From an uncultured Gammaproteobacteria bacterium (GTDB lineage: Bacteria > Patescibacteriota > Microgenomatia > Levybacterales > UBA12049), in NCBI GenBank assembly GCA_964474445.1, contig CAYYSJ010000007.1, positions 3,112 through 67,111 on the forward strand: a DNA stretch of 64,000 bases, in the 5' to 3' direction. Made by a program: the position numbers and the translations under genes. Shown here in pieces: positions 1 through 52,782 of this stretch (position 1 is the first letter of the stretch; the number at the start of each line of letters is the position of its first letter). The notes below the pieces were generated by a model. The model saw only the letters and a list, made by a program, of their open reading frames with translations. It made no database searches and was not told the DNA's origin.

Positions 1-354
1 AGCAGGTTGGGTCAGAAAGTAACTTAACAAGTGTTGCTTGCAGATAAAACCTTTTACTATCTGCGAGGTCGTTTTGGAATTTTTCTCTATCATTTTGCTT
101 CAACATAATTTCTTAATTGCGCAACTATTTAATAGTAGAGCAAGACTTTATGTCTGTCAAGAGAACATTTCGTCTACATATTGACCTATACGACTTGAAT
201 GTATTACCTAATTTTGTCTGCAAAATTTGATAGCTCTCCAGTTCACCCACTGCTGTTATCCTCTCCGTCGCAAAGTTTGAATCATGGAGCAGTCTTAAGC
301 GACGATAAACTTATAAAAGCTCTCAAAGAGGGAGAGAAAGACCTAGACAAATAG

Positions 355-1104
355 CTAGATTTTCTTTGCGATAATAGTGAGGAAAAGAGGAAATTCAGAA
401 CGTGCCCTATTTTCCATTTTAGCAGCTTTCCCAAGACTTTCTTTCTCTGATACCCATTCTTCCAAATCTTCAATAACAAAACTGTTGTCTTTCAATGCTT
501 TTGTGTAAAAAGACAGTGGATAATGAAAAGACCATGTTACCTCAGAGCTTTTTTCTCCCGGATGCATAGTTATAGGAATTTTAAGAGGTGAGAGATAAAG
601 GTTTTCATACCGATACTGTAATTTGTTTTCTCCCATTCCCCATCCTGATTGACGAGGAATTCTGAAGGAAGGGTGATTAAGAACAATCACAAATTTTCCA
701 TTCTGCACGAGATGTTCGGAAGCATTTCGTATGGCATTTTGTGGAAATTCCATATTTTGTAAAGACAACATAGCAACAGCGTGGGTAAAATCTTTTTCTG
801 AAATACTCATGCGCTTGGTGGCATCTGCAAAAACAAAAGTGTGTTTTGTATTTCTATCTTTGCTTTTTGCAGAATCAATAAGGCTTTTCGCCAAATCTAT
901 TCCAACATATGGAATATTCTGGTCTATTGAGCGAGCTAATATACCTTGTCCACAGCCTATATCCAAAAGTCTGCTGTGAGAATCTAATCCTAATAAACGC
1001 AGTACTCTAGGCAAGACAACAGACTGATGATAATAATGGCCTTTGTCACCAACAATCTTGTTGTACCACTTCCCTGATTTATTCCAAGAGGTATCCTTCT
1101 TCAT
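355..1104 (-). CDS. Class I SAM-dependent methyltransferase
   Basis: 249-aa ORF with glycine-rich SAM-binding motif 'LLDIGCGQGILA' followed by an acidic 'VGIDL' motif, the typical Rossmann methyltransferase layout. Confidence 0.75.
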   Translation of the reverse strand: MKKDTSWNKSGKWYNKIVGDKGHYYHQSVVLPRVLRLLGLDSHSRLLDIGCGQGILARSIDQNIPYVGIDLAKSLIDSAKSKDRNTKHTFVFADATKRMSISEKDFTHAVAMLSLQNMEFPQNAIRNASEHLVQNGKFVIVLNHPSFRIPRQSGWGMGENKLQYRYENLYLSPLKIPITMHPGEKSSEVTWSFHYPLSFYTKALKDNSFVIEDLEEWVSEKESLGKAAKMENRARSEFPLFLTIIAKKI

Positions 1105-1257
1105 AATACTTGTATTCTCTCAAACAATTTAACACTATAGCAAGAGAACAATTACGTATATAGTATTTTTCTTACAAACTTCTTTCAAGATAATACGGTT
1201 TCTGCTTACAAATTTCACCCTTGAACCATCGTACTCTTCTGTTATACTAGCCTCATT

Positions 1258-3072
1258 ATGTCAGCTTCAAACCCGTTACACCACCTTCCCGACCCATTTG
1301 ATGATATTAAAAAAGTGGATATGGGACATTGTTTTAGCGCTAGTAATAGCAATTTGTATGCAAGTGCAGAATTTGGGAGAGATGCAAGGCAACTTGCTGT
1401 TGATGCCCTTATTTTCGATCCCACTATTACCAAACGTGTTGTTATGTCATTGGTAAAACACCAGGCATGGAAACGCAATGATATCACAGAAGCACAACCG
1501 GGGAAATTTCATCATGAACATCGAGAGCTTTTTATTAATGGCCAAAAGATTCCTGAACATTCAGAAAAAATTCTCAGAGAATTATCTGCAAAATGGGGAG
1601 GAACTGATGAAAAAGTTACTTACTATGGAAGTTCTGATATTACTCCTGATGTAGTTAGCCTTATCGCAGAGCTTGCAAAGCAAGACCTTGCTATTTTAAA
1701 GGAAAAAGTTATCAATCACGACAGGAAGAAAAAAATTAGTATTAAAGATAGTGCTCGCCATGGGATTCAGTGGGTCATGGATAGGATTGTCTTTGGTCCA
1801 ACCGTTACGCCACATAATAATATTGTCCAAAAATTCTTGGAGAAAAACCATCTGACGCAATTTGTTCCGACATATCACAATTACGTTTTGCGAAACATTG
1901 ATTGGATGAATCAAAAAATCACCACTGTTGGACAACAGCTTCGACTGCCTCTCTCTCAAAAAAAGAAACGAGTCAAATTACTTGAATTCCAACGTATCAA
2001 TCAACAAGGTATAACGTATCAAGGATGGATGGACGGAGGAACTTCCCTTATCCACTCCTCAAAAGAGATGCAAGGAATTCTTGCAGACTACAGGCAACCG
2101 ATTGCAACCATTGAAATGCAAGGATCTGCAATTGATGCACTTGAAAAAGCTGCATTTCTTTTCCCTAAAAAGGGCAAACATTTTAGAAAATTGGCTGATG
2201 AAGTTCGTGCAAACGTTATCAAACACTTTTGGATGGAAGACAAACAGTTTTTTGCAATGGGAACTGACAGAGAAAACAAAGGAGCACTGAGAAAAATTGA
2301 CACACTCGGAGCAAATGTCGGCGAACTCCTTAACTCTACATTTTTTGATACGATGCTTTTGCATGAAAAACAAAAGTACATCTCAGCAATTTTAACAATG
2401 CTTTTTAGTGATGAATTTCTTACAGACGCAGGTCTTCGTACACGGGCTAAATCTTCTGCTCACCTCACAGACATGTCTGAGAATAAGAATCAACCAAATT
2501 CTCCTTTGGATTATTGGGATTATCAAGGAGCAGAAACATCCTGGATTGTTCAAACAGGAAGAATTGCTGAAGGTCTTCGCATGCAAGGGTTCTACAATTT
2601 GGCGGAGCAATTAGATAACAGAATAGTAAATACCGTCAATCTCTGCAATTTTAATTTGGAATATGTCTATGTTGGAGCAAGAGGACAGTTGGAAAATGTT
2701 GTTGCGTACAAGACAGTTTCAAAGCAAACAATGTATCCACGATCAAAAAATCTTGATGTTGTTACGATCTCTGCAACAAATGTTCCAGAAGCAACGCAAA
2801 CGTGGACTGCATCACGAGTTGCAACAATATTGCATAGGAAAAGCCATCCAGAACTTACTGGACAGACAGAAAAAGAATCTTGGCAGGATAAACTTGAGCA
2901 AACAATCCTTGCTGATTTGAAACAAAAAGGAGCATTTCTTCCGATTTTTGATGCAGAAAAAGTTTTGACACTTCGGGAAACTGCGCCATTATTCGTTGTT
3001 GATCAAGAGAAAGGCAGAAAATTGGAAGAAGACATAAAGGCACATTCTAAAAACTTTTACCTGAATTACTAA
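1258..3072 (+). CDS. Glycogen debranching enzyme-like glycoside hydrolase (amylo-alpha-1,6-glucosidase / GDE_C-type (alpha/alpha)6 barrel)
   Basis: 604-aa ORF. Shares blocks with the 16914..18599 paralog ('KLLEFQRINQQG', 'YPIATIEMQG..DAL', 'HFWMEDKQFFAMGTDREN', 'NSTFFD', 'FLTDAGLRTR', 'DYWDYQG'), the pattern of archaeal/bacterial-type GDE-like hydrolases. Confidence 0.6.
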   Translation: MSASNPLHHLPDPFDDIKKVDMGHCFSASNSNLYASAEFGRDARQLAVDALIFDPTITKRVVMSLVKHQAWKRNDITEAQPGKFHHEHRELFINGQKIPEHSEKILRELSAKWGGTDEKVTYYGSSDITPDVVSLIAELAKQDLAILKEKVINHDRKKKISIKDSARHGIQWVMDRIVFGPTVTPHNNIVQKFLEKNHLTQFVPTYHNYVLRNIDWMNQKITTVGQQLRLPLSQKKKRVKLLEFQRINQQGITYQGWMDGGTSLIHSSKEMQGILADYRQPIATIEMQGSAIDALEKAAFLFPKKGKHFRKLADEVRANVIKHFWMEDKQFFAMGTDRENKGALRKIDTLGANVGELLNSTFFDTMLLHEKQKYISAILTMLFSDEFLTDAGLRTRAKSSAHLTDMSENKNQPNSPLDYWDYQGAETSWIVQTGRIAEGLRMQGFYNLAEQLDNRIVNTVNLCNFNLEYVYVGARGQLENVVAYKTVSKQTMYPRSKNLDVVTISATNVPEATQTWTASRVATILHRKSHPELTGQTEKESWQDKLEQTILADLKQKGAFLPIFDAEKVLTLRETAPLFVVDQEKGRKLEEDIKAHSKNFYLNY

Positions 3073-3109
3073 GGAACGAAATTTCTGAAGAAGCACCTGT
3101 CTTTTACTG

Positions 3110-5479
3110 TTATGCAGAGATAGGATGGCTCACGACTCGGCCTGCTGGTTCTTTATCTTCTACTTTTTGAGCTTTCAAAGGCTTCACTAGCGCAACCGGT
3201 AACACCTCATCCATATGTCCTACAAAGACAAACTTTAAGTCATTAATAACTTCCTTTGGTAACTCTTCCAAATCCTTCTCATTTTCCTTTGGCAAAATAA
3301 CAGTCTTGATACCTGCTCTATGCGCAGCGATCACTTTTTCCTTTACCCCACCAATTTCTAGTGCTCTTCCTCGAAGTGTTACTTCACCGGTCATTGCAAC
3401 TGTTCGTTTGACTGGAATTTTTGTCAGTGCTGAAATAATTGCTGTTGTAATAGCAAGCCCTGCAGATGGACCATCCTTTGGTACTGCTCCTTCTGGAACA
3501 TGGACATGAATATCTGTTTTCTGGAAGGTTTTATCTGGAATACCAAACAGATTTGCACGAGAGCGAATATATGAAAGCGCAGCTTGAGCTGATTCTTTCA
3601 TGACATCACCCAACTGACCAGTCAGAATAAGTCCACCTTTTCCTGGCATCAAAGCAACTTCGATAAAGAGGATGTCTCCACCTGCTTCTGTCCAGGCCAT
3701 ACCAGTTGACATACCAACTTCATCTTTCTTCTCAATAAGATTCTCACTGAAGACAATTGGACCTAAGTACTTCGTTACTGTTTTATCTGTAACAATTGTT
3801 TTCTCAGGGGTCCCTTCAGCAACTTCTTTTGCTACTTTTCGATAGATTGCTGCAAGCCTTCGTTCTAAGTTACGTACTCCAGCCTCTCTTGTATAATGCT
3901 GAATGACAAATTTCACCGCATCATCAGTAATCTCTATTTGGTTTTCTTTGAGTCCATTTGCCTCAACGAGTTTCTTGAATAAGAAGTTCTTTGCAATTTT
4001 GAATTTTTCATCTTGTGTGTATCCTGCAAAGTTAATGATTTCAAGTCTATCCCTCAAAGCTGGCGGAATAGTATCTAAAACATTTGCCGTGGTAATAAAC
4101 ATCACATCAGATAAGTTAAATGGAACTTCCAAATAATGATCCGAAAATCCATGATTTTGTTCCGGATCTAATGCTTCTAACAATGCTGCAGTTGGATCTC
4201 CGCGGAAATCTGCACCAACTTTATCAATTTCATCAAGCATGAAGACAGGGTTCTTAGTTCTAGCATCTTTAATGCCCTGAATAATTCGACCTGGCATTGC
4301 TCCAACATATGTCCGTCTGTGTCCTCGAATTTCTGCCTCGTCACGGATACCTCCAAGAGATACTTTCACAAACTTTCGACCTAATGCTTTTGCAATTGAT
4401 TTTCCAATAGATGTTTTCCCAACACCAGGAGGCCCTGCAAAACAAAGAATTGGTCCTTTCATCTTGCCAGATAATTTTCTCACTGCTAGGTACTCAACAA
4501 TTCGTTCTTTTGCTTTCTTCAGACCAAAGTGCTCTTCATCTAAAATTTTCTCAGCGAGTTTAATATTAACATTATCTTTACTCTCTTGACTCCATGGCAA
4601 GTCTACTAACCATTCAACATAATTTCTAATATACCCTGCTTCTGGATTGAATTGATTCATTTGCCCAAGCTTTTTCACTTCTTTCTTTGCTTTTTCCTCT
4701 ACTTCCTCAGGCATTCCTGCTTTTTTAATCTTATCCAGTAACTCTTTCACTTCACCTGCATCATCTGTCTCTTGTCCTAATTCTTTTTCAATTGTCTTGA
4801 GTCTCTCTCTGAGTATTGCTTGTCTTGCGCCTTTTTCAAATTGTTCTTGAGTCTTGGATGCAATTCTTCTTTCAAGCTCGAGGATTTTAATCTCTCTTGA
4901 AAGCAGATCAGCAATTTTTTCAAGTCTTTCCTTTACATTGGTCATTTCTAATATATGTTGTCGCTCTTGTGGTTTTAGATCCAGTGCAGAAGCAACTAAA
5001 TCAGCAAGTTCTGAAGGAGAATTATCAGACATAATATTCATAAAGACGAGAAAGTCTGAAGACTTTCCTAAATTCATCGCTCTACGAAATTCGTTTGTAA
5101 TATGATTGCATAATGCTCGTACTTCTGGAGTATCTTCAACAACATCAGGAAGCTCTACAACATGTGCAAGAAGATATGCATCATGTTCTTCATAAGAAAC
5201 AATTTTGATACGAGTAAGTCCTCTCACTTGCGCGTTAATTTCACCATTTGTACGAATCATTCGCTCAATTCGTGAGAGTGTTCCAATTTCAAAAAGATCT
5301 TCTGTTGAGGGATCATTAATTCGTGCGTTTTTTTGTAGTACAAAACAGACAATACGTTCATTTTGGAAAGAGGATTCAAGTGCTGCTAAACTCTTCTGCC
5401 TTCCGAAAGTGAGGACTGCATCGGTATTGGGGAATATAATACCATCTCTAATTGGAATTACGGGTACTAATTTGTCCAT
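3110..5479 (-). CDS. lon: ATP-dependent Lon protease (La)
   Basis: 789 aa. N-terminal LON substrate-binding domain, AAA+ Walker A 'GPPGVGKTS', Walker B 'FMLDEIDK', C-terminal protease motif 'PKDGPSAG' with catalytic Ser. Confidence 0.95.
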   Translation of the reverse strand: MDKLVPVIPIRDGIIFPNTDAVLTFGRQKSLAALESSFQNERIVCFVLQKNARINDPSTEDLFEIGTLSRIERMIRTNGEINAQVRGLTRIKIVSYEEHDAYLLAHVVELPDVVEDTPEVRALCNHITNEFRRAMNLGKSSDFLVFMNIMSDNSPSELADLVASALDLKPQERQHILEMTNVKERLEKIADLLSREIKILELERRIASKTQEQFEKGARQAILRERLKTIEKELGQETDDAGEVKELLDKIKKAGMPEEVEEKAKKEVKKLGQMNQFNPEAGYIRNYVEWLVDLPWSQESKDNVNIKLAEKILDEEHFGLKKAKERIVEYLAVRKLSGKMKGPILCFAGPPGVGKTSIGKSIAKALGRKFVKVSLGGIRDEAEIRGHRRTYVGAMPGRIIQGIKDARTKNPVFMLDEIDKVGADFRGDPTAALLEALDPEQNHGFSDHYLEVPFNLSDVMFITTANVLDTIPPALRDRLEIINFAGYTQDEKFKIAKNFLFKKLVEANGLKENQIEITDDAVKFVIQHYTREAGVRNLERRLAAIYRKVAKEVAEGTPEKTIVTDKTVTKYLGPIVFSENLIEKKDEVGMSTGMAWTEAGGDILFIEVALMPGKGGLILTGQLGDVMKESAQAALSYIRSRANLFGIPDKTFQKTDIHVHVPEGAVPKDGPSAGLAITTAIISALTKIPVKRTVAMTGEVTLRGRALEIGGVKEKVIAAHRAGIKTVILPKENEKDLEELPKEVINDLKFVFVGHMDEVLPVALVKPLKAQKVEDKEPAGRVVSHPISA

Positions 5480-5656
5480 AAATATTTACCTATTTAGCAC
5501 TCTATCAGACATGTTGCTAACTGTCAACCCCCAAAAATACTCTAATCCCTCCTTATCCTCGTAAGAAAATACTATAACTGTATAATACAACTGAACTTAT
5601 GCAAATACGCCAATTTTTTTTCATTGTTCACACTAATAACGAACCTCTTTCTCTGG

Positions 5657-5686
5657 TTGACAGCCTCAATCTGACAGACCTACAAT
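5657..5686 (+). promoter_or_regulatory. Putative sigma70 promoter for the MgtE_N/CBS-Nramp gene pair
   Basis: TTGACA (5657-5662), 18-nt spacer, TACAAT (5681-5686); AGGAAG RBS 5688-5693 ahead of ATG 5696. Confidence 0.4.
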
Positions 5687-5695
5687 TAGGAAGCC

Positions 5696-6877
5696 ATGAT
5701 CTATTTAAGCCAACTTCTTAACAAACCAATTTACCAAAATGGCAAGCCTTTTGGAAAAATTGTTGACCTTGCAATCTTTGAGAATAGGCCAAATCCTCCT
5801 GTTTCAAAAGTAGAAATTAAACACGGTACAGAAAAATTGACCGTCTCCCCCCAAGCACTTACGTTGATGAATAATCATATTTCTTTGCCTGCACAACATA
5901 TTCCTATGCTTCCCTATGATCATAAGGATTTCTATCTCGTTGAAGATTTACTCGATAAACAGGTTATTGATACGGATGGGAGAAGATTGGTTCGAGTTAA
6001 TGATGTAATCCTTGAAAAGAACGGAGAATTTAAGGTGGTCGGCATTGATATTGGTTTTGCAGGTGTACTGAGGCGTTTAGGGTTAGGTATGTTTGCACAT
6101 CAAACGACAGTACTTCCCTGGAATGTTATTGAAGCATTTGATTATCAAACAGGAGATGTCAGAATAAAAATAAAACAAAGCAGTCTGAATACCCTCCACC
6201 CTGCTGATCTTGCAAATATTCTTGAGGATGCAGGAACAAAAGAGCGGATAGGAATTGTTGAAGCACTAGATGCAAAGCAAGCGGCAAGAGCCCTGGAAGA
6301 AGCAGATGAGGAGACACAAGTCTCAATTCTTGAAAACCTGAAGCCAGAGACAATAAAAGATGTTGTCAATAAAATGCATATTGCAGAAATCGCAGATGTC
6401 TTCAAAGACCTGAATCCCTCGAAGGCAAAAGAAGTCCAAAACGCATTAGGTACTGAAAGAACCCAAAAAGTGACTAAATTGCTCTCGTTCTCAGATGATG
6501 TTGCGGGAGGAATGATGCACTTAGGTTTTTTCCAAGCAGAAAGTAGTAAGACAGTAAAAGAAGTTATTAAGGAAATGGAAAATCAAGCAAATGTTCCAGA
6601 AACGATTATTGTTACAAATGAAGGCGGAAAAATAGCAGGAGTTATTAACACGAAAGAACTTCTTATCGCAGACAAATTGTCACTACTGGAGGATAATATT
6701 TCTGATAAAAAATTTGTATTCCCGGATACTCCCTTAGACGATATTATTGAGCTTTTTGCACAATACAACCTCCGAGTTGTTCCTGTTGTTGATCAAGAGA
6801 AAAAACCTGTTGGTATTATCCTTATTGATGATATTCTTAAAATAGTTGAAGAGGAAAATAGAAATGAAGACCTTTAA
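5696..6877 (+). CDS. Cytosolic PRC-barrel + MgtE_N + CBS-pair protein (MgtE-type Mg2+ sensor module with no membrane domain)
   Basis: 393 aa. N-terminal PRC-barrel-like region. The central helical block 'LEDAGTKERIGIVEALDAKQAARALEEADEETQVSILENLKPETIKDVVNKMHIAEIADVFKDL' matches the MgtE N-domain pattern. A C-terminal tandem CBS pair follows. The protein ends with no TM helices. Its 3' end overlaps the start of the Nramp-like gene by 32 nt. Confidence 0.7.
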   Translation: MIYLSQLLNKPIYQNGKPFGKIVDLAIFENRPNPPVSKVEIKHGTEKLTVSPQALTLMNNHISLPAQHIPMLPYDHKDFYLVEDLLDKQVIDTDGRRLVRVNDVILEKNGEFKVVGIDIGFAGVLRRLGLGMFAHQTTVLPWNVIEAFDYQTGDVRIKIKQSSLNTLHPADLANILEDAGTKERIGIVEALDAKQAARALEEADEETQVSILENLKPETIKDVVNKMHIAEIADVFKDLNPSKAKEVQNALGTERTQKVTKLLSFSDDVAGGMMHLGFFQAESSKTVKEVIKEMENQANVPETIIVTNEGGKIAGVINTKELLIADKLSLLEDNISDKKFVFPDTPLDDIIELFAQYNLRVVPVVDQEKKPVGIILIDDILKIVEEENRNEDL

Positions 6878-8102
6878 GAACGTATTTATCCGAATTCTTC
6901 CTCTTCTTGCAATCATTGGGCCTGGAATTATTTCCGGATCTGTCGATAATGATGCAGGAGGGATTACAACCTATTCTCTTGCAGGGGCTTCTTTTGGCTA
7001 CACCCAATTATGGGTATTAACAATTACAACGTTTTGTCTGATTATCACTCAAGAAATTGGCGCACGAATGGGACTTGTCACAGGAAAAGGATTGTCTTCA
7101 TTAATCCGTGAAAAATTTGGTGTGCGGTGGACAACATTTATTATGGGAGTTCTTCTTGCTGCAAATATTGGGACAATTGCTGCAGAATTTGCTGGAATTG
7201 CTGCTGCCTTGGAAATATTCCATATCAGCAAATTAATATCTGTTCCTATTGCAGCTGTTATTATTTATGCTCTTATGTTGAAAGGTAATTTTAAAAGACT
7301 AGAGAGAGTTTTTCTTGTCGCTTCCGCATTTTATCTTGTTTATATTGTTTCTGCTGTTCTTGCCAAACCTGATTGGGGTCTTTCTTTTAAAAGCCTTGTT
7401 GTCCCAACAATACAATTAAATAAAGGATATTTCCTTACCATGATTGCTGTTATTGGAACAACGATCACACCATGGGGGCAATTCTTTATTCAGGACTATG
7501 TGGTAGATAAAAAACTGAGTAAAGATGATTTATCTATTGAGCGAGGAGATGTCATGGTTGGCTCAATACTCACCAACGTTATTTCTTACTTTATTATTAT
7601 TGCGTGTGCTGCAACAATTTTTAGTCACGGTTTGGCTATAAATGATGCAAAAGATGCGGCAATTGCTCTTCAACCACTTGCCGGACATCTGGCTAGTTTT
7701 CTTTTTGCTTTTGGACTTTTGAACGCTTCCATTTTCGGTGCTGCATTAGTGCCAATTTCAACGTCCTATGTTGTCAGTGAAGCTTTTGGATTTGAATCAG
7801 GGCTTAATTTTAGTTTTGAAGAAGCACCTCAATTCTATGGATTATTTGCATTTCTACTGATAATGGGAAGTCTACTCGTTATTCTTCCGTTTGTTCCCCT
7901 CTTAACAATTCTTTTTGTTTCACAGGCAATTAATGCAGTTCTTCTTCTCCCAATTCTTATTTTTGTATACATTCTCTCGAACGATAAAAAATTACTTGGA
8001 GTATATGCAAATAATAGGATTGTTAATATTATTGTTTTGATCACCTTTTTTGGAATTGCAATTGCTTCAATTATTTACTTTGCCACACAGTTTATTCATT
8101 AA
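6846..8102 (+). CDS. Nramp-family transporter, NRMT-like (non-canonical metal site)
   Basis: 418 aa, about 11 TM helices. TM1 reads 'GPGIISGSVDNDAGGITTYSLAGASFGY', aligning to Nramp 'GPGFL..IDPGN..AGA' with DPGN replaced by DNDAGG. TM6 reads 'GTTITPW' in place of canonical 'GAxxMPH'. Confidence 0.75.
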   Translation: MKRKIEMKTFKNVFIRILPLLAIIGPGIISGSVDNDAGGITTYSLAGASFGYTQLWVLTITTFCLIITQEIGARMGLVTGKGLSSLIREKFGVRWTTFIMGVLLAANIGTIAAEFAGIAAALEIFHISKLISVPIAAVIIYALMLKGNFKRLERVFLVASAFYLVYIVSAVLAKPDWGLSFKSLVVPTIQLNKGYFLTMIAVIGTTITPWGQFFIQDYVVDKKLSKDDLSIERGDVMVGSILTNVISYFIIIACAATIFSHGLAINDAKDAAIALQPLAGHLASFLFAFGLLNASIFGAALVPISTSYVVSEAFGFESGLNFSFEEAPQFYGLFAFLLIMGSLLVILPFVPLLTILFVSQAINAVLLLPILIFVYILSNDKKLLGVYANNRIVNIIVLITFFGIAIASIIYFATQFIH

Positions 8103-37542: not shown

Positions 37543-40500
37543 TTAGTTGCTGGATCCTTTAACAACAGTATAATTTATCACAGGAGCATCCACTGCAGTT
37601 CCTCCGGTTGTGAGAAAAGTAATCTGGAAACTTCCTGCTGCTATATTTGTTACAAATAGCTCATACAGATTAGTTCCTGAATTTTGATTCAAAAGGATCG
37701 TATCTGTTGCTGCAACTGTACTGTTTGTAACAGTAAATGAAGTTGCTGTAGCTGACCCTGCTGCTGAAAAGAGAGTTATTTGACCTGTTGTCTTATTAAG
37801 CGTAACGCCTGTTGATCTACTAGTAAGTTGTGTAACAGTACCTCCTGCTCCTGCTCCATAACCGATTCCAGTTGATCCAGTTGATTTAATAAATCCTGTT
37901 GCAGTCAATGGACCATTAACCGTTGCTCCTGCATTAGATGTTGAATTACCAATGGTAACAAGACCAGAAGTTGCGGAAATAGTATTAATACCTACTGTAC
38001 CTGTTCCTTTTCCATCTAAAGTAAGATTCGTATTGGCACCTGAATCAATTGCAGCAAGGGCTGTCGTGCCTCCTGTCGCGGCTCCTGTTACTGATAAACC
38101 AGTCGCAACAGAAGCTGTACTAGCATTAACTTGAAGTACAGGATTCAATGATCCACCCGCTCCAACTGTTAATGCATTCGCACTAGTTGATGTAACCGTA
38201 ATTGCACCTGATCCAATGGTTCCAGCGCCTGTTATATTACCCGCTGATGTAATTGTAATGTTTGGTGATGTGAGAAAGTTCGTATATCCAGTACCAAAGG
38301 TAAGTGCGTTAAAGTTATTATTTGCAACTGCACTTACATTGGCAAAATTAATACCAGTATTGGTATTGGTTCCACTTGATGGTGCAGTACCAACCATTGC
38401 CACAGAAAGTCCATTCACACTTGTTCCCGCTGCTGCGTTACTGTTTGTCACATTAAATGTTGTTGCTGTACCAGTGGTGTTTGAATAATTTTGAGTAACT
38501 GTTCCCGTTCCAGAAGCCAGTGTTAATGTCTTATTTGCTGATACTGTAGTATTTGCACCTAAGGTAATAGCATTTGCATTGGTAGTACCAATATTAACAC
38601 CCGCCGCTCCTCCGGTATCAAGCGTTACTGCATTTGCACCTGTTGATTGGAATGTAAATGCTCCCGCAACTGCTGGCTGTACAGCAGTCGAGGAGAGAGT
38701 CACGCCGTTATAACTTCCTGCGCCAGTAATAACACCACCTGAGGTAACATTAATGTTTGGTGATGTGACAAAGTTTGTATACCCAGTACCAAAGGTAAGC
38801 GCATTAAATGTATTATTTGCAACTGCACTTACATTGGCAAAATTAATACCAGTATTGGTATTGGTTCCACTTGATGGTGCAGTACCAACCATTGCAACAG
38901 AAAGCCCATTCACACTTGTTCCTGCTGCTGCATTACTGTTTGTCACATTAAATGTTGTTGCCGTACCTGTGGTGTTTGAATAATTTTGGGTAATTGTTCC
39001 CGTTCCAGAAGTAAGTGTTAATGTTCTATTTGCAGCAATTGTTGTATTCCCATTAAGATTGTTCGCTCCAGTTGATGTTGAGAAGGTACCTGTACCGTTA
39101 AAGGTATAATTTGGATTATTTGTACCATTACCGAAATTAAGAGCATTTGCATTGGTATTACCAACGTTGACAGCAGCTGCTCCTCCTGCATCTAATGTCA
39201 AAGCATTAGCACCATTTGATTGGACTGCAAGCACTCCAGCAGATGTTGGCTGAATAGTACTACCAACTGTAATGTTTGCACCAGTAACGGTTAATGTTCT
39301 GGATGTTGTACCTCCTGCAACGGTAAAACCATCTGCTGCAGAGGTTAAGGTTAACCCATTGACGGTACTGGATGTCGCAAGCGGACCACTCACGGTTGTT
39401 GTCACGCCTGATCGTCCGATTGTCACACCATTTGCATTTGTTGTCCCAATATTGATTCCTGCTGCTCCTCCTGCATCAAGGGTGAGGGCTGTTGCTCCTC
39501 CGGAAGTAACTGACAGTGCTCCAGATCCCGTAATATTCCCGCCAGCAGTAAAGGCAGGCAGGGTTAACCCAGTCGTTGTTACTGTTCCATTGATGGCTGG
39601 AGCTGTTAATGTCTTATTTGTTAATGTCTGGGTTGCTCCGATACCAACAACCGTATCGGTTGCCGTTGGGAATGTCATGGTTGTTCCATCGGTACCTGCT
39701 AAGGTTAAGGTATTGCTGACTGTTAATGTTTTAGCTGTTGTTCCACCAGCAATCCCAAACCCTGTTGCATTTGCCGTAAGGGTAAGACCATTAATTGCAC
39801 CGAAACTTGAAATGGTTGGAGAACCTGAACCAGTAATATTGCCACTGGCAGTAAAGGCAGGCAGTGTTAATCCTGTCGTTGCGACTGTTCCATTGATTGT
39901 TGGAGCTGTTAGTGTTTTGTTTGTTAATGTTTGTGTCGCCCCGGTACCAACAACGGTATCGTTCGCAGTTGGGAACGTCATGGTTGTACCATCAGTGCCT
40001 GAAAGGGTAAGTGAGTTATTTGCAGTTAATGTTTTTCCACTCGCTACAGTTAATCCGTTCACTGTTGTTGCATTAATTGTTCCAGAACCAGAAGTCGTAA
40101 GTGATGCCCCTGTTCCAACTATCATAGCTGCGCCTGTATTTGTACCCCCACTGAGTGTTGAGAAAGATGCGCCAGAGCCTGAACTTGCTGCAATGGTAAT
40201 ACCTCCTGCAGCATTTGTAATAGTTACTCCAGATCCAGCAGTAAGAGTTCCTAGACTGTATCCACTACCATTTCCAATTAATACCTGTCCATTTGTTGGT
40301 GTTGTCGTTACTCCGGTTCCACCATTACCAACAGGAAGCGTCCCTGTGACATCTGAAGAAGCAAGATTTGTTGCTGAGGAGGTAATACTACCAGAGCCAT
40401 TACTATGTAATATTCCCGATCCTAATGCACCAATTGTTAATCCACCTGAAAGATTGAGATTACCATTATTATCTATAGTAGCCTTTGTTAAGTTAAGGGC

Positions 40501-41487
40501 TGACCATCTATTACTTGATGTACCAAGTTGACCAACGCCTGATTGAGCAGGATACAAATCACCACCCGTAGAACCCAAAACTGCCCCATCTCCAAGTGCA
40601 CTTGAGTTTGTCCCAGCATTCGCTTGAGCAGAATTATACGTAGTTAACACACTACCTTCTGTTAACATAACATCATCAAGATATACAGCTCCACTTGTTA
40701 GTCCTTGAACCTGGAACATTGGATAATAATTTTTGCTATCAGTAATAAGTCCTCCCGTAGTCACTGTTGTTGAAATCCTATACCAATCTTTTGTTCCAGA
40801 TATTGTTATATTTTTAAATGAACCCTCTTTATTATTTTGTTCATCCCAAAACCCAATACGGAAGGTTGCATTAGAAGCATTGACATTTTTTACCCATGCA
40901 GAAAGTGTATATGTTCTCTGTGGAGTTGTTTTTGTGTTAGGTTGAGAAATACCAAAATTACCTGTTCCTCCACCAACAAACTTAAGTCCATAGCTTCCTG
41001 AATGAATTCCCTCTTGAGAAATAAAGGTATTCCCAGAATTTGAATCAAGCTGAGTATTCCATTGTGAGGGAATACTTCCAGTTCCGCCTGCCTCAAAAGA
41101 AGAATTTCGAAGAAGATTTACTCCGGCTGTATCTACAACTAAGGCATTTTGAGAAGGTGCTTGATTGAGGGAGCTTATTTGTAATGACAGATTCCCTACT
41201 TTTTGTTGAAGTGCTGCAAACGCGTCTGGATCAATACTTATTCCTTCTACCGCTCTTGTTTGAGGTTTTGACGCATTCACTACCAATGTATTTGTACTCT
41301 CATAAGGAGTCTTCCCTTGAAAGACAACGTTCATCACAGAACCCAAAAAATTTCGCATATCTTGTCCGCCAAAAGCTTGTGCACTTGGGACCTGAGAGAG
41401 GACAAGAATCACGATAAACGACGTTGCAATCAGAAACTTTCGTAAGGAAACCTTTGCTCTTTTTCTTTCTTTTTTGTTTTCTTTCAT
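37543..41487 (-). CDS. Giant secreted Thr/Gly/Asn/Ala-rich repeat protein with N-terminal CBM4/9-like carbohydrate-binding module and beta-helix-like repeats (surface adhesin/fibre candidate)
   Basis: 1314 aa. Signal peptide/anchor 'FLIATSFIVILVLSQVPSAQA'. CBM4_9-like block 'NLLRNSSFEAGGTGSIPSQW...GSYGLKF...YTLSAWVKN'. Then ~1000 aa of low-complexity T/G/N/A repeats with recurring 'TQTLTNKTLTAPxINGT' and 'TLTL(S/A)GTDGTTMTFPTA' units. Confidence 0.7.
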   Translation of the reverse strand: MKENKKERKRAKVSLRKFLIATSFIVILVLSQVPSAQAFGGQDMRNFLGSVMNVVFQGKTPYESTNTLVVNASKPQTRAVEGISIDPDAFAALQQKVGNLSLQISSLNQAPSQNALVVDTAGVNLLRNSSFEAGGTGSIPSQWNTQLDSNSGNTFISQEGIHSGSYGLKFVGGGTGNFGISQPNTKTTPQRTYTLSAWVKNVNASNATFRIGFWDEQNNKEGSFKNITISGTKDWYRISTTVTTGGLITDSKNYYPMFQVQGLTSGAVYLDDVMLTEGSVLTTYNSAQANAGTNSSALGDGAVLGSTGGDLYPAQSGVGQLGTSSNRWSALNLTKATIDNNGNLNLSGGLTIGALGSGILHSNGSGSITSSATNLASSDVTGTLPVGNGGTGVTTTPTNGQVLIGNGSGYSLGTLTAGSGVTITNAAGGITIAASSGSGASFSTLSGGTNTGAAMIVGTGASLTTSGSGTINATTVNGLTVASGKTLTANNSLTLSGTDGTTMTFPTANDTVVGTGATQTLTNKTLTAPTINGTVATTGLTLPAFTASGNITGSGSPTISSFGAINGLTLTANATGFGIAGGTTAKTLTVSNTLTLAGTDGTTMTFPTATDTVVGIGATQTLTNKTLTAPAINGTVTTTGLTLPAFTAGGNITGSGALSVTSGGATALTLDAGGAAGINIGTTNANGVTIGRSGVTTTVSGPLATSSTVNGLTLTSAADGFTVAGGTTSRTLTVTGANITVGSTIQPTSAGVLAVQSNGANALTLDAGGAAAVNVGNTNANALNFGNGTNNPNYTFNGTGTFSTSTGANNLNGNTTIAANRTLTLTSGTGTITQNYSNTTGTATTFNVTNSNAAAGTSVNGLSVAMVGTAPSSGTNTNTGINFANVSAVANNTFNALTFGTGYTNFVTSPNINVTSGGVITGAGSYNGVTLSSTAVQPAVAGAFTFQSTGANAVTLDTGGAAGVNIGTTNANAITLGANTTVSANKTLTLASGTGTVTQNYSNTTGTATTFNVTNSNAAAGTSVNGLSVAMVGTAPSSGTNTNTGINFANVSAVANNNFNALTFGTGYTNFLTSPNITITSAGNITGAGTIGSGAITVTSTSANALTVGAGGSLNPVLQVNASTASVATGLSVTGAATGGTTALAAIDSGANTNLTLDGKGTGTVGINTISATSGLVTIGNSTSNAGATVNGPLTATGFIKSTGSTGIGYGAGAGGTVTQLTSRSTGVTLNKTTGQITLFSAAGSATATSFTVTNSTVAATDTILLNQNSGTNLYELFVTNIAAGSFQITFLTTGGTAVDAPVINYTVVKGSSN
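38258..39030. repeat. Near-identical 495-bp (165-codon) tandem duplication inside the giant protein gene
   Basis: Antisense ORFs 38216..38488 and 38753..38983 translate to near-identical peptides, giving a period of exactly 495 bp. On the coding strand this duplicates 'TLTL(T/A)SGTGT(I/V)TQNYSNTTGTATTFNVTNSNAAAGTSVNGLSVAMVGTAPSSGTNTNTGINFANVSAVANN'. Confidence 0.7.
39540..40010. repeat. Diverged ~303-bp (101-codon) tandem repeat inside the giant protein gene
   Basis: Two ~85% identical nucleotide blocks starting near 39547 and 39850, coding 'TLTL(S/A)GTDGTTMTFPTA(N/T)DTVVG(T/I)GATQTLTNKTLTAP(T/A)INGTV..TGLTLPAFTA(S/G)GNITGSG'. Confidence 0.55.
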
Positions 41488-45466: not shown

Positions 45467-46762
45467 TTATACAAGGGAAATCAGCTTCTTTGAGCGATGA
45501 TTATAGGAGAAAAGTTGGGTATAGGAACCGATATCGATTGCTGCTCTAAACTGAAGCATTGCATCTTCTGTAGGGAAATATTGCTCTAAGTGTTCTATAA
45601 CCTCTCTTTCCTCCATAGTATGATGTGGGCTTTCTTGTAAACGTTTTATAATATATTGGATAAGGACGATATTTCCTTCTGCTTGTGTACGAAGAATTTC
45701 TCTTGCTTTCTCTTGCAACGCATTAGCAAATGCAAGACCAACTTCTGTTAAAAGTATTTTATTTCCCTCAATGCCACCAAAGCCTAGAATATCAATAAGG
45801 CTGGTTAAATGAAGCATTTCTGCAACTGAAACAGTGTTTTGAACCGAATGGAGATCTACTTTACCACCAAACGCAGCAATACCCTTTAAGAATCCTTTCA
45901 TTGTATGAATGCTTACCAGCGGTAATACTTGATACGCAGATTTTTCTTCTGCAACCGAAAGTTCTTGCACTCCATGAATAAGCTTTGCAGGACTGACATG
46001 TGGATTTGTCATGATTTGATAAATACTATCAACAAGCTGTAACCTCTCTGGAGTTTTCGTTTTTCGTTTTTCAACTGATAAGCCTGGTACTTCCACCCGA
46101 AACCTTCCCGGATTTGCTGAAAGAACAAACATTCGATCAGCCATACTAACTGCCTCATCAATATTGTGTGTTACCATCACAATTGTTTTGGTTGGAATCT
46201 TTTTCTCAAGCCATAAAGAAAGCAACTCATGGCGTAAATTTTCTGCGGTTAAGACATCAAGAGCAGAAAAAGGCTCATCCATGAATAGTATCTCAGGCTG
46301 AACAACAAGTGCTCGCGCAAAGCCAACTCGCTGTTTCATACCCCCTGAAATCTCTTTTGGAAATGCTTCCTCAAATCCTTTCAAGCCAATAATCTCAATA
46401 ACTTCTTTTATTCTTTTTTCTTTTTCGTCTTTTGAAATATTTTTTGCAATAAGACCAAGAGAAACATTTTCGCGAACAGTAAGCCACGGATAAAGCGCAA
46501 AGTTTTGAAAAACAATTGCAGCATAGTGGTTCGGTCCAGCAAGAGACTTTCCATTCACCATAACATGTCCTGTAGAAGGAGGAATAAGACCGGCAAGGAT
46601 GCGAAGAAATGTTGACTTTCCGCAACCTGATGGACCTAAGAGTGCAACAAATTCACCTTCATGAACAGAAAGGTTTAGATTATCAAGTACTACTTTTTTT
46701 GTTTTTCCATCTCCATACCATTTATGGATATGCTTTGCTTGTAATAAACTGTTTGACTCCAT
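45467..46762 (-). CDS. ABC transporter ATP-binding protein (NitT/TauT-type) with ~200-aa C-terminal extension
   Basis: Walker A 'LGPSGCGKSTFL', signature 'ISGGMKQRVGFARAL', Walker B 'ILFMDEPFSALD', H-loop 'VMVTHNIDEA'. I prefer the start at 'MESNSLLQAKHIHKWYG'. The C-terminal half has no recognised motif. Confidence 0.8.
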   Translation of the reverse strand: MESNSLLQAKHIHKWYGDGKTKKVVLDNLNLSVHEGEFVALLGPSGCGKSTFLRILAGLIPPSTGHVMVNGKSLAGPNHYAAIVFQNFALYPWLTVRENVSLGLIAKNISKDEKEKRIKEVIEIIGLKGFEEAFPKEISGGMKQRVGFARALVVQPEILFMDEPFSALDVLTAENLRHELLSLWLEKKIPTKTIVMVTHNIDEAVSMADRMFVLSANPGRFRVEVPGLSVEKRKTKTPERLQLVDSIYQIMTNPHVSPAKLIHGVQELSVAEEKSAYQVLPLVSIHTMKGFLKGIAAFGGKVDLHSVQNTVSVAEMLHLTSLIDILGFGGIEGNKILLTEVGLAFANALQEKAREILRTQAEGNIVLIQYIIKRLQESPHHTMEEREVIEHLEQYFPTEDAMLQFRAAIDIGSYTQLFSYNHRSKKLISLV

Positions 46763-46769
46763 ATATAGA

Positions 46770-48590: not shown

Positions 48591-49892
48591 TTAGTGTCCT
48601 AACGTGAAAATCATCGCAACTGCCGCAGCACCCATTGAAATAAAGGTTATCCAAACTACTACTTGGGAAAGCCATCCACTAGCATACTCTCCCATAATTT
48701 TTTTATTTGCTGCTATTTTTGCAATAAGGAAAATTAGCGGTACCGCAACAACCCCATTAATCACTGCCGTTACAACAAGCGCTTTAATTGGATCAAGACC
48801 AATAAAGTTAATCATTAAGCCAATGAGTGTAGCAATAGTGATAACGCCATAAAATCCATGTGCACGTTTGAGCTTTAAATTGAGTCCTTCCTTCCAGCTA
48901 AATGCTTCAGAGAATGCATACGAAGCAGAGCATGATAAGACAGGAATAGCAAGAAGTCCTAATCCGATAATGCCAATAGAGAAAATGAGTTTTGCAAGAT
49001 ATCCAGAGTTAGGAAAGGTATGTACCAATGGTTCTAATGCTTTTGCTGCATCTGCCGAGGTTGCAATATTTGTAACTCCATGGGAATTCAGTACTGTTGC
49101 AGTGACGACAATAATACACCAGGTGACAGCCTCTGAAGCAAACATACCAAACGCATTATCAATACGCATGTTTTTCACTATTCTCCATACATTTTTTGGT
49201 TCTCCATCTGCATTCAGTTCATGATGTGCTTTCTCTTCTTCAACTTCTTGGTTCGCTTCCCAGAAAAATAAGTAAGGAGAAATTGTTGTCCCAAGAACAC
49301 CTGTGATAATAAAAAGAAATGCAAAGCTAAATTCAAAGTGAGGAAGAATCGTTGCTTTTACAATAGTCTGAAATGGAAGATGAATAATAAGAAGAGTTAA
49401 TGGGTATGCAAGAAGAGCTATGGCTAACCATTTGAGGATACGAGAATAAACATAATAGTTAGTAAATATTTCAAGGGTAAGAATAAAGGCCGTAAAAAAG
49501 AGTGTCCAGATCACAAAATGAAATGGAAGAATTAAATTTGCAGCAGCAGCTAATGCCCCAATGTCTGCTCCAATGTTGATTGTGTTTGCAATTAAAACAA
49601 GAACGACGACACCATATAGTACCTTTTTACTATAGTTGTCTCGTACTACAGCAGCAATCCCTTTTCCTGTGACAATACCTATTCTTGCACAAGCTTCTTG
49701 AACTGCAATCATTAAAGGAAGCATCGCAATTGCTGTCCATAGTTGTCCATATCCAAATTGAGCACCTGTTTGAGAATACGTTGCAATACCAGATGGATCA
49801 TCATCTGCCGCTCCAGTAACTAATCCTGGCCCTAATACGCGAAAAAATTTGCGAGAATTCTTCTTTGTGTTATGCAGTAGTTCTTTTATCAT
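48591..49892 (-). CDS. Nramp-family transporter, NRMT-like paralog 2
   Basis: 433 aa. TM1 'GPGLVTGAADDDPSGIATYSQTGAQFGYGQLW' has DDDPSG in place of DPGN. TM6 'GTTISPY' replaces 'GAxxMPH'. Confidence 0.75.
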   Translation of the reverse strand: MIKELLHNTKKNSRKFFRVLGPGLVTGAADDDPSGIATYSQTGAQFGYGQLWTAIAMLPLMIAVQEACARIGIVTGKGIAAVVRDNYSKKVLYGVVVLVLIANTINIGADIGALAAAANLILPFHFVIWTLFFTAFILTLEIFTNYYVYSRILKWLAIALLAYPLTLLIIHLPFQTIVKATILPHFEFSFAFLFIITGVLGTTISPYLFFWEANQEVEEEKAHHELNADGEPKNVWRIVKNMRIDNAFGMFASEAVTWCIIVVTATVLNSHGVTNIATSADAAKALEPLVHTFPNSGYLAKLIFSIGIIGLGLLAIPVLSCSASYAFSEAFSWKEGLNLKLKRAHGFYGVITIATLIGLMINFIGLDPIKALVVTAVINGVVAVPLIFLIAKIAANKKIMGEYASGWLSQVVVWITFISMGAAAVAMIFTLGH

Positions 49893-49976
49893 GCCTTATT
49901 TATCTTCCTTATCTATTTTGCTCCTATTTTTTCATATATTGCAATAGCTAAGAGGATTTATATGTTGAAGTGATGT

Positions 49977-50201
49977 TTATTCGTTATCTCCCATACTTTT
50001 TTGTAATTCTTGGTGTGCTTTTTCTGTTAGTTCCATTGCTTGTTTACCTAATTCATAAGCTTTTTGTGTATGTTCTACCTCTTTTTCTTTATTTCCTAAC
50101 GCTCTATGAATTGCAGCTCGCTGATGATGTTCTTCCACTTTTTCGTGAAGCGTTGCAGCATCTAAATGAAGTGATAATGTATCGTCCATAAAATACTTCA
50201 T
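49977..50201 (-). CDS. Small His/Glu-rich helical protein, hypothetical
   Basis: 74 aa, hydrophilic, His-rich ('HLDAATLHEKVEEHHQRAAIHRALGNKEKEVEH'). Codirectional between the two Nramp-like genes. I prefer it to the antisense ORF 49970..50191. Confidence 0.3.
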   Translation of the reverse strand: MKYFMDDTLSLHLDAATLHEKVEEHHQRAAIHRALGNKEKEVEHTQKAYELGKQAMELTEKAHQELQKSMGDNE

Positions 50202-50247: not shown

Positions 50248-51930
50248 TTAATGTCCCGTTGCAAGTTGTACAACTTTGATAATCATTAGTAATGCAGCAA
50301 CAACTAAGTATCCTCGAAGCGTATACATACCGATTTTTCTTGTTAATGACCATTCAGGTTTTGGTAATGTCTCTAATGGTTGCATTCTCCAATTCATTTT
50401 TTCCTCAAGAGACATCAATTCTTTTTTCTCTGTCTTTTTCTTACTAAATAGATAGAATCCTCCTGTTATCAGAAGCCCGGCAATAAGAGCACTTCCGGTC
50501 CAAACAGTTACTTGAGTTCCATCAAGATTTGGGAAAAGCGTTGTCGCAGCAAGAATAAAGGAGAGCATAACTAACACTCCAATAATGATACCTGCAATTG
50601 CATTAAGCCATTTTGTATTTACCCAAGGGCCAAGCACATGTTTATCGTTGCACAAAAGGACAAGAAATACAGTGGCCGATGGAAGAAGAATGCCAGCTAA
50701 AGCTTGTACAGCAAGGTTAATAAGCCCAAGAGGAGCATGAGGAATAAGCACTATTGCTGCTGCAAGAACAACAAGGACTGAATAAGAAATGTAGAAGAAT
50801 TTTGCATCTTTAAATGATCTATGGAGTGAATGATGCATTCGAAATACATCTCCAAATGCATATGAAGTTGAAAGGGTAACTGCAGCAGCACCAATCACTG
50901 CAGCATCTATAAGAATTATTGCCCCCATAGCTCCTGCTTGATGTCCAAATGTTGTAGCAAGACCACTAATGACTCCTGTCATATCTGAAAACTGTCCTGT
51001 AAGTTTTGTTCCTGCAAATGCAAAAGCAGTTACGATGATCATGGCAGCAGCACCAAATTCGGTAACAAATGATCCAAAAATGGTATCCATTACTTCATAT
51101 TTAAGCCAGCGAGGAGTAATTCTCTTGTCAATAACGTTTGACTGTTGGAAAAACAATTGCCATGGAGCAACAGTAGTCCCAACAATACTCACAATAAGAA
51201 GGAGTACGGTGGAGTTAAGTCCTCCTGCTATTCCAGGAATAAACGTATCATGGAGAACTGGCATCCAGTGAGGGTGAACCATGAGAGCTAATGGATAAAC
51301 CAGAAATGAGAAGACAATAAAGCCGTACATAAATTGCTCCCAACGTTTGAAGCTTCCAGTAAGTGCAGTTGCAATAAGGATTGTGGCAAATAAGGGAACA
51401 GACAGGTATGGAGGAATTCCAAAGTAAAGTGCACCTTGAGAAATACCAATAAATTCAGTGACAATAGTAAGAAAGTTTAAAATAAATAAATCCCCTGCTG
51501 AGAAAAATCCCCAGAATTTTCCAAACCGTTCAATAATCATGCGAGCATGTCCGACACCTGTCACAGCACCAAGACGAGCAACCATTTCTTGATTCACAAT
51601 AAGAACAGGTATAAGAAGGAAGAGCGTCCACATAAGAGAAGTGCCGTAATTTTGTCCTGCTTGCATGTATGTAGCAACTCCTCCCGCATCGTTATCACCA
51701 ACCATAACAATGAGCCCTGGACCCATGATCACTAAAAACGCAAGAAGTTTTTTTAATAGTCCTTTATGCTGATATGGATGTTCATCTTTTCGGATAGTAC
51801 CCCATGCGCCATAGATATCACCCAAGTGGGCTGGATCTAACACAGCACTCCCCGCATGAGAGTCAACCTCATGTGGATGAGGTAAATATTTATAATAAAC
51901 GTTTTTGAAAAATTCTTTCATCACAAACAC
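50248..51930 (-). CDS. Nramp-family transporter, NRMT-like paralog 3 (extended C-terminus)
   Basis: 560 aa. TM1 'MGPGLIVMVGDNDAGGVATYMQAGQNYGTSLMW'. TM6 'GTTVAPW'. Extra C-terminal TM helices and a ~60-aa tail. Confidence 0.75.
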   Translation of the reverse strand: MFVMKEFFKNVYYKYLPHPHEVDSHAGSAVLDPAHLGDIYGAWGTIRKDEHPYQHKGLLKKLLAFLVIMGPGLIVMVGDNDAGGVATYMQAGQNYGTSLMWTLFLLIPVLIVNQEMVARLGAVTGVGHARMIIERFGKFWGFFSAGDLFILNFLTIVTEFIGISQGALYFGIPPYLSVPLFATILIATALTGSFKRWEQFMYGFIVFSFLVYPLALMVHPHWMPVLHDTFIPGIAGGLNSTVLLLIVSIVGTTVAPWQLFFQQSNVIDKRITPRWLKYEVMDTIFGSFVTEFGAAAMIIVTAFAFAGTKLTGQFSDMTGVISGLATTFGHQAGAMGAIILIDAAVIGAAAVTLSTSYAFGDVFRMHHSLHRSFKDAKFFYISYSVLVVLAAAIVLIPHAPLGLINLAVQALAGILLPSATVFLVLLCNDKHVLGPWVNTKWLNAIAGIIIGVLVMLSFILAATTLFPNLDGTQVTVWTGSALIAGLLITGGFYLFSKKKTEKKELMSLEEKMNWRMQPLETLPKPEWSLTRKIGMYTLRGYLVVAALLMIIKVVQLATGH

Positions 51931-52094
51931 CTCCTATGTAAAAGGTAATATTGGAAAGTTCGCCTGAAAGAAGAGGATTATCTAAGAGGAACCATACAAA
52001 AATAATCTACAATCTCTTATAAACTCTTTTTGTTTAGCGACGTCTTAACACCTCTTCTCGTTGAGCTTCGACTATTGCTGAAAGACGTATGCGT

Positions 52095-52268
52095 ACTACT
52101 CTATTCGTTCTAACCTAATCTAAATCAATGAAATTAAGCTATTGCAAGCTACTTTGGATTAATCCTTACTCCGGAAAAATCTGTCCTGACCTTGACCGTC
52201 TCTCGACGTGGGGGGTCAGCAGCTTGTATTCTTTCAGCAGTCTCACCTAACGAGGTGCAACTAACTAT
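52095..52268 (-). ncRNA. Candidate M-box (ykoK) Mg2+-sensing riboswitch in the leader of the Nramp-like operon
   Basis: Minus-strand leader reads ...CGTTAGGTGAGACTGCTGAAAGAATACAAGCTGCTGACCCCCCACGTCGAGAGACGGTCAAGGTCAGGACAG... This aligns with the Bacillus mgtE M-box core 'CGUUAGGUGAGGCUCCUGUAUGGAGAUACGCUGCUGCCCAAAAAUGUCCAAAGACG' as I recall it, with conserved GUUAGGUGAG, GCUGCUG.CCC, AGACG and CAGGACA boxes. About 330 nt of leader lie upstream of the Nramp ATG. Confidence 0.55.
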
Positions 52269-52780: not shown

Positions 52781-52782
52781 CT

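Follow-up and report, generated by a model that had tools for sequence, protein, structure and literature searches.

The closest described relatives of the gene pair considered here are the 'mgtE-nramp operons' of Shin et al. 2014 (PLoS Genet 10:e1004429, PMC4072509). These authors named NrmT, reported that most NrmT genes adjoin a gene for a homolog of MgtE's N-terminal cytoplasmic domain (their Fig. S5) and already speculated that this fragment might exert cytoplasmic feedback regulation on NrmT; neither PRC nor CBS domains are mentioned in their paper. On the transporter side, EleNRMT is a monomeric carrier with 11 transmembrane (TM) segments that takes up Mg2+ and Mn2+, is uncoupled from H+ and has the membrane potential as its driving force (PMC8806188), and the structural paper describing it makes no mention of any partner protein. 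A literature search for later work on the partner turned up only Shin et al. 2014. The pair analysed here, ORF1 and ORF2, lies within a 64,000-nucleotide stretch of contig CAYYSJ010000007.1 (below, the window). It consists of a gene for a soluble MgtE-like protein (below, the partner, a word also used for its homologs) followed by a gene for an NRMT-type transporter of the SLC11/Nramp family.

Control of a membrane transporter by a cytosolic ligand-binding module is a familiar principle: CBS pairs regulate CorB/CNNM, ClC and OpuCA, RCK domains regulate KtrAB and TrkAH, and in the Ktr/Trk systems a gene of its own encodes the regulator, a soluble subunit. ORF1-ORF2 resembles these systems in the concept of a cytosolic sensor module, although folds and partners differ; CBS-containing examples were found among the PDB fold matches of the ORF1 model. 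For SLC11/LeuT-fold metal transporters, no trans-acting regulator like those of KtrAB/TrkAH is known to have been demonstrated.

The earlier note on this DNA had presented the pair as a previously undescribed way of gating Nramp-type Mg2+ uptake. Both the gene association and the feedback hypothesis have been known since 2014 (PMC4072509), and ORF1-ORF2 is a case of that operon type in the candidate phyla radiation (CPR). New here are the two PRC-like modules of the partner, a universal replacement of MgtE residue F227 by Leu, the loss of most MgtE-type Mg2+ ligand positions in the CPR and the presence of an M-box Mg2+ riboswitch before some orthologous operons, two CPR operons included. The value of the analysis is a sharper, testable picture of the ancillary protein, rather than the discovery of the gene pair.

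As in the operons of Shin et al. (the Ca_c0685 operon; Acp2976-Acp2977), an MgtE-cytoplasmic-domain gene stands immediately upstream of an NrmT/NRMT gene, the pairing is conserved within a clade and some members are led by an M-box. Unlike many of those operons, the window operon carries no M-box; the M-box is not a defining trait of the family. It also differs in its CPR (Levyibacteriota-like) origin, in a conserved 14-nt overlap of the two genes and in the loss of most MgtE-type acidic ligands. The fragment of Clostridium acetobutylicum is encoded by two split genes, that of the window by a single one.

The partner, its transporter and their pairing

The earlier note had read a PRC domain, an MgtE_N domain and a CBS pair from ORF1, and the Pfam search bore this out (coordinates in Table 1). 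PRC (PF05239) matched with E 1.6e-10 and 41.3 bits (cutoff 21.2), MgtE_N (PF03448) with E 4.6e-21 and CBS (PF00571) with E 9e-15 over two stretches, all exceeding the Pfam gathering scores. The protein is also devoid of a TM domain, as had been said: the same search gave no match to the MgtE membrane domain (PF01769), and with a 19-residue Kyte-Doolittle hydropathy that peaks at 1.32 the protein has no TM segment. The mgtE equivalog model TIGR00400 (NCBI) covers ORF1 only at model positions 22-257 of 450, and its score of 105 bits falls short of the cutoff (232.75). The cytosolic domain of Thermus thermophilus MgtE (TtMgtE, 2YVY) aligns with ORF1 at E 9.6e-27. The description of ORF1 as the full regulatory portion of MgtE proved too generous: the protein ends near TtMgtE residue 261 and lacks nearly all of the plug helix.

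An AlphaFold2 model of ORF1 has as its best PDB match the Mg2+-bound 2YVY structure (TM-score 0.82, target-normalised; rmsd 2.2 Å). The model is confident for aa 190-380, with a predicted local distance difference test score (pLDDT) of 83-94 in the CBS pair. Aa 70-161 fell below 50, the input alignment being shallow (21 sequences, none below 50% identity), and the model is unreliable there. For aa 1-77, AlphaFold2 gives six strands at moderate pLDDT and Pfam gives no match in the window protein. The equivalent region is matched by PF05239 in distant homologs from three loci (L053, L097 and L122), and more generally the PRC model matches distant homologs at either aa 1-70 or aa 84-125. Judged from these matches, the conserved architecture of the partner is two PRC-like modules, MgtE_N and a CBS pair, and it is present in all groups; the additional PRC module at aa 1-77 of the window protein is probable, through its distant homologs. 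Homologs with the architecture of ORF1 occur in CPR, Eremiobacterota, Chloroflexota and Acidobacteriota (466 family matches).

Like the cytosolic domain of TtMgtE (2YVX/2YVY), ORF1 thus has homologous MgtE_N and CBS domains of the same fold, and their negative charge (Table 1) is comparable to that in TtMgtE (-11 and -12); the PRC part is slightly basic. Unlike TtMgtE, it is a separate polypeptide with neither plug helix nor TM pore, and its N-terminus is longer by about 160 residues, with PRC-like barrels.

ORF2 is, as had been proposed, an Nramp-like transporter: PF01566 matches it with E 5.6e-90 and 302 bits over profile positions 1-356 of 357. Its closest solved relative is the 11-TM EleNRMT (7QIA; E 2.6e-101, 43% identity over 381 residues), all other Nramp-family PDB chains giving 1e-29 or weaker. 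The NRMT clade is marked by DxxG in helix 1 and TxxA/T in helix 6, which replace the canonical DxxN and A/CxxM (PMC8806188). The ion site of ORF2 reads DNDAGG (DxxG) in TM1 and GTTITPW (TxxT) in TM6; the helix-6b histidines of the H+ pathway are replaced by Trp (at W229) and Ile (at N234), and the helix-10 Gln is kept (at Q379). On these signature residues ORF2 belongs to the NRMT clade of PF01566. It shares D55, G58, T224, W229 and Q379 with EleNRMT and departs from it in having Ile at N234 and Thr at Ala227, a position held by Met in canonical Nramps. By homology it would be an 11-TM protein and probably an uncoupled Mg2+/Mn2+ carrier.

The overlap of the two genes noted earlier is real, although its length had to be corrected from 32 nt, counted from the first possible start (TTG 6846), to 14 nt. 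Of the 41 readable related CPR loci, 31 overlap by exactly 14 nt and 40 by 11-23 nt, while the first possible start shifts from locus to locus. Since the ATG-defined overlap is the constant one, ATG 6864 is almost certainly the true start of ORF2. Purine-rich equivalents of the Shine-Dalgarno-like site that precedes it are present in the CPR loci. In non-CPR phyla, partner and NRMT genes show 1- or 4-nt overlaps or short gaps. ORF1 and ORF2 probably form a two-gene operon in which, given the overlap, both proteins would be made by coupled translation in matched amounts.

Conservation of the pair was surveyed from both sides. A scan with a partner alignment, using one genome per species, gave 173 confirmed relatives, of which the best 80 loci were analysed: 47 from CPR (Levyibacteriota, Microgenomates, Patescibacteria) and 33 spread over Eremiobacterota, Chloroflexota and Acidobacteriota, together with one Accumulibacter metagenome-assembled genome. 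In these best 80 loci partner identity lies between 86% and 26% and in every case extends along the whole protein, PRC region included. Downstream sequence is available for 75 of the loci, which represent four phyla or more, and an NRMT gene lies directly downstream on the same strand in 75/75; in the other 5 of the 80 the contig ends at the partner gene. The reverse metagenome scan, seeded with a 560-aa NRMT paralog of the window (see below), gave 80 high-GC loci, 54 of them with at least 1300 nt upstream. Around these NRMTs of the 560-aa-type subclade, a full-length partner gene stands upstream on the same strand in 47 of the 54 loci; one has a partner gene on the other strand only, and six have none. 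Adjacency and order of the pair, which the earlier note had singled out beforehand as a test of its claim, are strongly conserved. Across NRMT subclades the partner is thus a nearly obligate companion of the transporter: in the two surveys it occurs essentially never without an NRMT, and most sampled NRMTs have it.

Every NRMT linked to a partner in the first, partner-centred survey has Thr or Ser at the EleNRMT Ala position (70/70). The idea that the partner occurs with Thr/Ser-type NRMTs and not with Ala-type ones was rejected, the 47 loci with an upstream partner having been seeded with an Ala-type paralog.

Several observations were made on individual loci. At L128 a second partner-like gene (136-1341, minus strand) lies divergently, further upstream of the partner gene (1975-3165, plus strand) that directly precedes the one NRMT gene. 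A candidate partner-Nramp fusion at L057 (5794-8523) was rejected: the NRMT lies in another frame than the 909-codon open frame, which continues into Arg-rich, high-GC alternate-frame sequence and does not encode a fusion protein but reflects an alternate-frame artefact or the loss of a stop codon. Low-GC pairs that cluster with CPR and have the 14-nt overlap carry the labels 'uncultured Gammaproteobacteria' or 'Sulfotelmatobacter' at L001, L008, L012, L013, L015, L040 and others; these labels are probably taxonomic mislabels or binning errors. Finally, four CPR loci hold a second PF01566 paralog (L008 9544-10758, minus; L018 3103-4317, minus; L021 4690-5925, plus; L043 1837-3066, minus). These paralogs are 28-30% identical to ORF2, resemble the 433-aa paralog of the window and lie a few kb from the partner-NRMT operon; at such loci the partner gene always adjoins the NRMT-type gene and never the second paralog.

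Candidate promoter and riboswitch control of the pair

A promoter-like sequence stands just before the ATG of ORF1 (Table 1) and leaves no room for a riboswitch leader. Such sites are not above the chance number in the ORF1 region, and this one is a candidate only. A sensitive Rfam scan of positions 5400-5800 with E up to 1 gave no riboswitch in the ORF1 leader, and in the scan of the window no M-box was found upstream of ORF1.

Six of the 80 partner-centred loci have an M-box directly upstream of the partner gene, confirmed by Rfam at 101-133 bits. The view that no partner-NRMT operon has an M-box, which held in the first 11 loci, was overturned by the profile search with Rfam that gave these six. 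Two of them, L039 and L041, are CPR operons whose NRMT is 72-73% identical to ORF2, and their M-boxes are the best evidence, although an indirect one, that the clade of ORF2 handles Mg2+. The position of the M-box varies in the Ala-type set: it can lie upstream of the partner gene (L153, 1185-1364) or between partner and transporter genes (L095, 3063-3233), and at L117 (3063-3230) it adjoins the transporter gene with the partner gene about 2 kb away. In some organisms the riboswitch would therefore control the transporter but not the partner.

Proposed action of the partner and its alternatives

An uncoupled, potential-driven Mg2+ carrier would need a brake, and the operon of the window has no riboswitch to provide one; feedback by the partner is proposed. 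The ORF1 protein would dock on the cytoplasmic face of the ORF2 transporter, its mildly basic PRC modules being the candidate docking part. At high cytosolic divalent cation the acidic MgtE_N/CBS part would compact and uptake would be inhibited, a post-translational negative feedback. We lean, by a small measure, towards this reading of docking through the PRC modules and inhibition through cation binding to MgtE_N/CBS. The near-obligate pairing, the conserved overlap, the M-box before six orthologous operons and the acidic MgtE_N/CBS part all point in its direction, and the same mechanism was suggested by Shin et al. 2014. A more specific form, in which the partner acts in trans as a gating subunit of an SLC11 carrier with the LeuT fold, PRC barrels take the place of the plug helix and the CPR module has been rewired to other sites or another signal, is plausible but falls somewhat short of an even chance. 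If the partner is a gating subunit, no regulatory subunit would be known from the Nramp family before it, and the question of what the 'ancillary gene' does, which dates from 2014, would be answered.

Functional residues of MgtE were mapped onto 119 partner sequences. The cytosolic Mg2+ ligands of TtMgtE are D91/D247 (Mg4), D226/D250 (Mg5), D95 (Mg6) and E59 (Mg7) (PMC5882242), and its ATP site in the CBS domains comprises Y170, R187, D188, N203 and F227 (PMC5529423). In favour of the feedback reading, acidic ligand positions are kept in partners of Ala-type NRMTs: Asp or Glu occupies E59, D91, D92, D95, D247 and D250, six of the seven acidic positions tested, in 45-46 of 46 sequences. In non-CPR partners of Thr/Ser-type NRMTs, E59, D95 and D247 are kept in 32/32. 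As a clade, the CPR partners have lost most of these ligands, with E59 changed to Lys or Arg, D91 to Ser or Ala, and D247 and D250 variable. Retention is thus lineage-dependent, high in the partners of Ala-type NRMTs and low in CPR, which can guide the choice of ortholog for biochemistry. Positions conserved in at least 95% of partners include E201 and, in the PRC modules, D24, D84 and D118; together with D234 and D379 these are the residues to which the surveys point for mutation.

A number of points weigh against the feedback reading. Only two of the six mapped TtMgtE ligand positions are kept in ORF1 (D95 as D234, D247 as D379), the others being replaced (E59 by R198, D91 by A230, D226 by N358, D250 by K382), and Leu takes the place of the ATP-stacking F227 in every one of the 119 partners (L359 in ORF1). 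ORF1 has no plug helix, the element through which MgtE passes on its signal, and the docking role of the PRC modules is a guess, made for a region modelled at low pLDDT. A physical interaction of partner and NRMT, or a regulatory effect of one on the other, has been demonstrated nowhere to date. In the experiments of Shin et al. neither Ca_c0685 nor Ca_c3329 required the MgtE fragment to transport Mg2+, co-expression of the Acidobacterium capsulatum pair left Mg2+ rescue unchanged, and the A. capsulatum transporter rescued a Mn2+ defect and behaved as a Mn2+ importer (PMC4072509). Gating in trans, as put forward in the earlier note, accordingly stands as a proposal which these experiments did not bear out. 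A link of the pair to Mg2+ is favoured by the M-boxes of the orthologous operons; the ligand count makes the designation of ORF1 as a Mg2+ sensor less secure here than in other phyla. With most acidic ligands replaced in the CPR lineage, the binding sites of CPR partners would differ from those of MgtE, and affinity or ligand possibly too.

The ligand loss in CPR speaks for a reading which we regard as unlikely, that the partner regulates the NRMT in response to a signal other than Mg2+, at least in CPR: Mn2+ or another cation, or a metabolite in the CBS cleft. The missing M-box of the window operon, the Mn2+-transporting protein of the A. capsulatum pair and the Thr or Ser found at the EleNRMT Ala position in every NRMT of the partner-centred set would suit it. 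It has to contend with the Mg2+ riboswitches ahead of the CPR operons L039 and L041, with a TxxT motif that falls inside the published NRMT signature DxxG-TxxA/T and with domains that are still strongly acidic. A nucleotide in the CBS cleft is disfavoured by the ATP-site positions themselves: besides the universal Leu at F227, the Y170 position is deleted in CPR partners, ORF1 included, where R187, D188 and N203 are K320, E321 and S336. MgtE-style ATP modulation is on these grounds probably absent from the whole partner family.

Two readings dispense with gating. A cytoplasmic metal chaperone or buffer, which takes the imported cation and passes it on, was offered as an alternative by Shin et al. 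2014 (PMC4072509). A highly acidic surface, with the net charge of MgtE_N reaching about -27 in the partners of some phyla, and a strict 1:1 genetic coupling would suit such a stoichiometric acceptor. Free Mg2+ is millimolar in cells, so that a Mg2+ chaperone has no obvious role; the homologous module of MgtE is a regulatory clamp (PMC5882242), and the partner was unnecessary for transport or growth rescue (PMC4072509). We hold this reading to be distinctly unlikely. A subunit for assembly, stability or localisation that senses nothing, for example a CBS dimer tethering two monomeric NRMTs, seems to us very improbable. It can draw on the cytosolic sites Mg5 and Mg7, which bridge the subunits of the MgtE dimer (PMC5882242), on the monomeric state of EleNRMT (PMC8806188) and on the faster divergence of the partner than of the transporter (median identity 51% against 70% within CPR). 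The transporters nevertheless work alone, both in Bacillus subtilis (PMC4072509) and in liposomes (PMC8806188), and the strong conservation of acidic ligand positions in non-CPR partners argues for ion binding. That ORF1 is a decaying mgtE remnant whose adjacency to ORF2 has no functional meaning, as its partial TIGR00400 match might suggest, can be set aside almost entirely. The conservation data refute this reading: in several phyla, more than 120 orthologs that are intact and full-length have the same gene order, with the same 14-nt overlap within CPR, and the architecture is shared by a large family whose extra PRC modules are foreign to MgtE.

Other Nramp-family genes and metal-related neighbours in the window

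Table 1. Features of the ORF1-ORF2 locus and of the M-box region, in window coordinates
Feature	Position	Strand	Remarks
Promoter-like TTGACA-18-TACAAT (11/12), just before the ORF1 ATG	5657..5686	+	Candidate
ORF1, soluble 393-aa NRMT-associated MgtE-like fragment	5696..6877	+	Both ORFs lie where the earlier note placed them
ORF1 N-terminal beta-rich module, aa 1-77	5696..5926	+	Probably first PRC-like barrel
ORF1 PRC-barrel domain, aa 78-160	5927..6175	+	PF05239
ORF1 MgtE_N helical domain, aa 167-268	6194..6499	+	PF03448; net charge about -8
ORF1 CBS pair, about aa 273-388	6512..6859	+	PF00571, two stretches; net charge about -11
Shine-Dalgarno-like GAAGAGGAAA within the ORF1 3' end	6848..6857	+	6-9 nt before ATG 6864; read from the sequence
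ORF1/ORF2 14-nt overlap, ATG 6864 to ORF1 stop TAA 6875-6877	6864..6877	+	Putative translational-coupling junction
ORF2, 412-aa NRMT-type SLC11/Nramp-family transporter	6864..8102	+	Mechanical ORF call begins at TTG 6846
433-aa PF01566 paralog, 'outgroup'-like	48591..49892	-	DDDPSG / GTTISPY; Ala at the Q379 position
74-codon ORF between the 560-aa and 433-aa paralogs	49976-50201	-	Helical; His/Glu/Lys-rich
560-aa NRMT paralog behind the M-box	50248..51930	-	DNDAGG / GTTVAPW; 35% identical to ORF2
M-box Mg2+ riboswitch of a separate operon	52045..52261	-	RF00380, 117.3 bits
Perfect consensus promoter TTGACA-18-TATAAT directly upstream of the M-box	52277-52306	-

The window holds a separate operon led by an M-box. 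The earlier note had placed two M-box-controlled paralogs at 48.6-51.9 kb: the riboswitch was confirmed, with the 560-aa NRMT gene behind it, and the 433-aa gene is possibly co-transcribed with the latter. The 74-codon ORF between them gave a sub-threshold TPR_12 match only (E 3.5e-4; 21 bits, cutoff 30). The three genes are not separated by any terminator-like site, so that the 74-codon ORF may belong to the M-box operon as well.

By tblastn, the window contains neither a second partner gene nor a true mgtE, and its 560-aa paralog, an exception among the NRMTs in this respect, is not accompanied by a partner gene there. The nearest relatives of this paralog (L081-L160) are 54-64% identical, lie on high-GC contigs (mean G+C fraction 0.68 versus 0.37 for the window) and, for the most part, do have a partner gene upstream. 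This suggests that the riboswitch-transporter unit was acquired horizontally without its partner, or that the partner was lost later.

An ArsR-family regulator and a CDF cation-efflux pump (52367-53718, plus strand) diverge from the M-box promoter. With an ABC transporter (45467-48524, minus strand), these genes and the M-box make up a small metal-homeostasis neighbourhood. Elsewhere in the window, positions 38001-40000 have a G+C fraction of 0.44, compared with about 0.36 outside them, and lie inside a 1314-aa ORF (37543-41487, minus strand).

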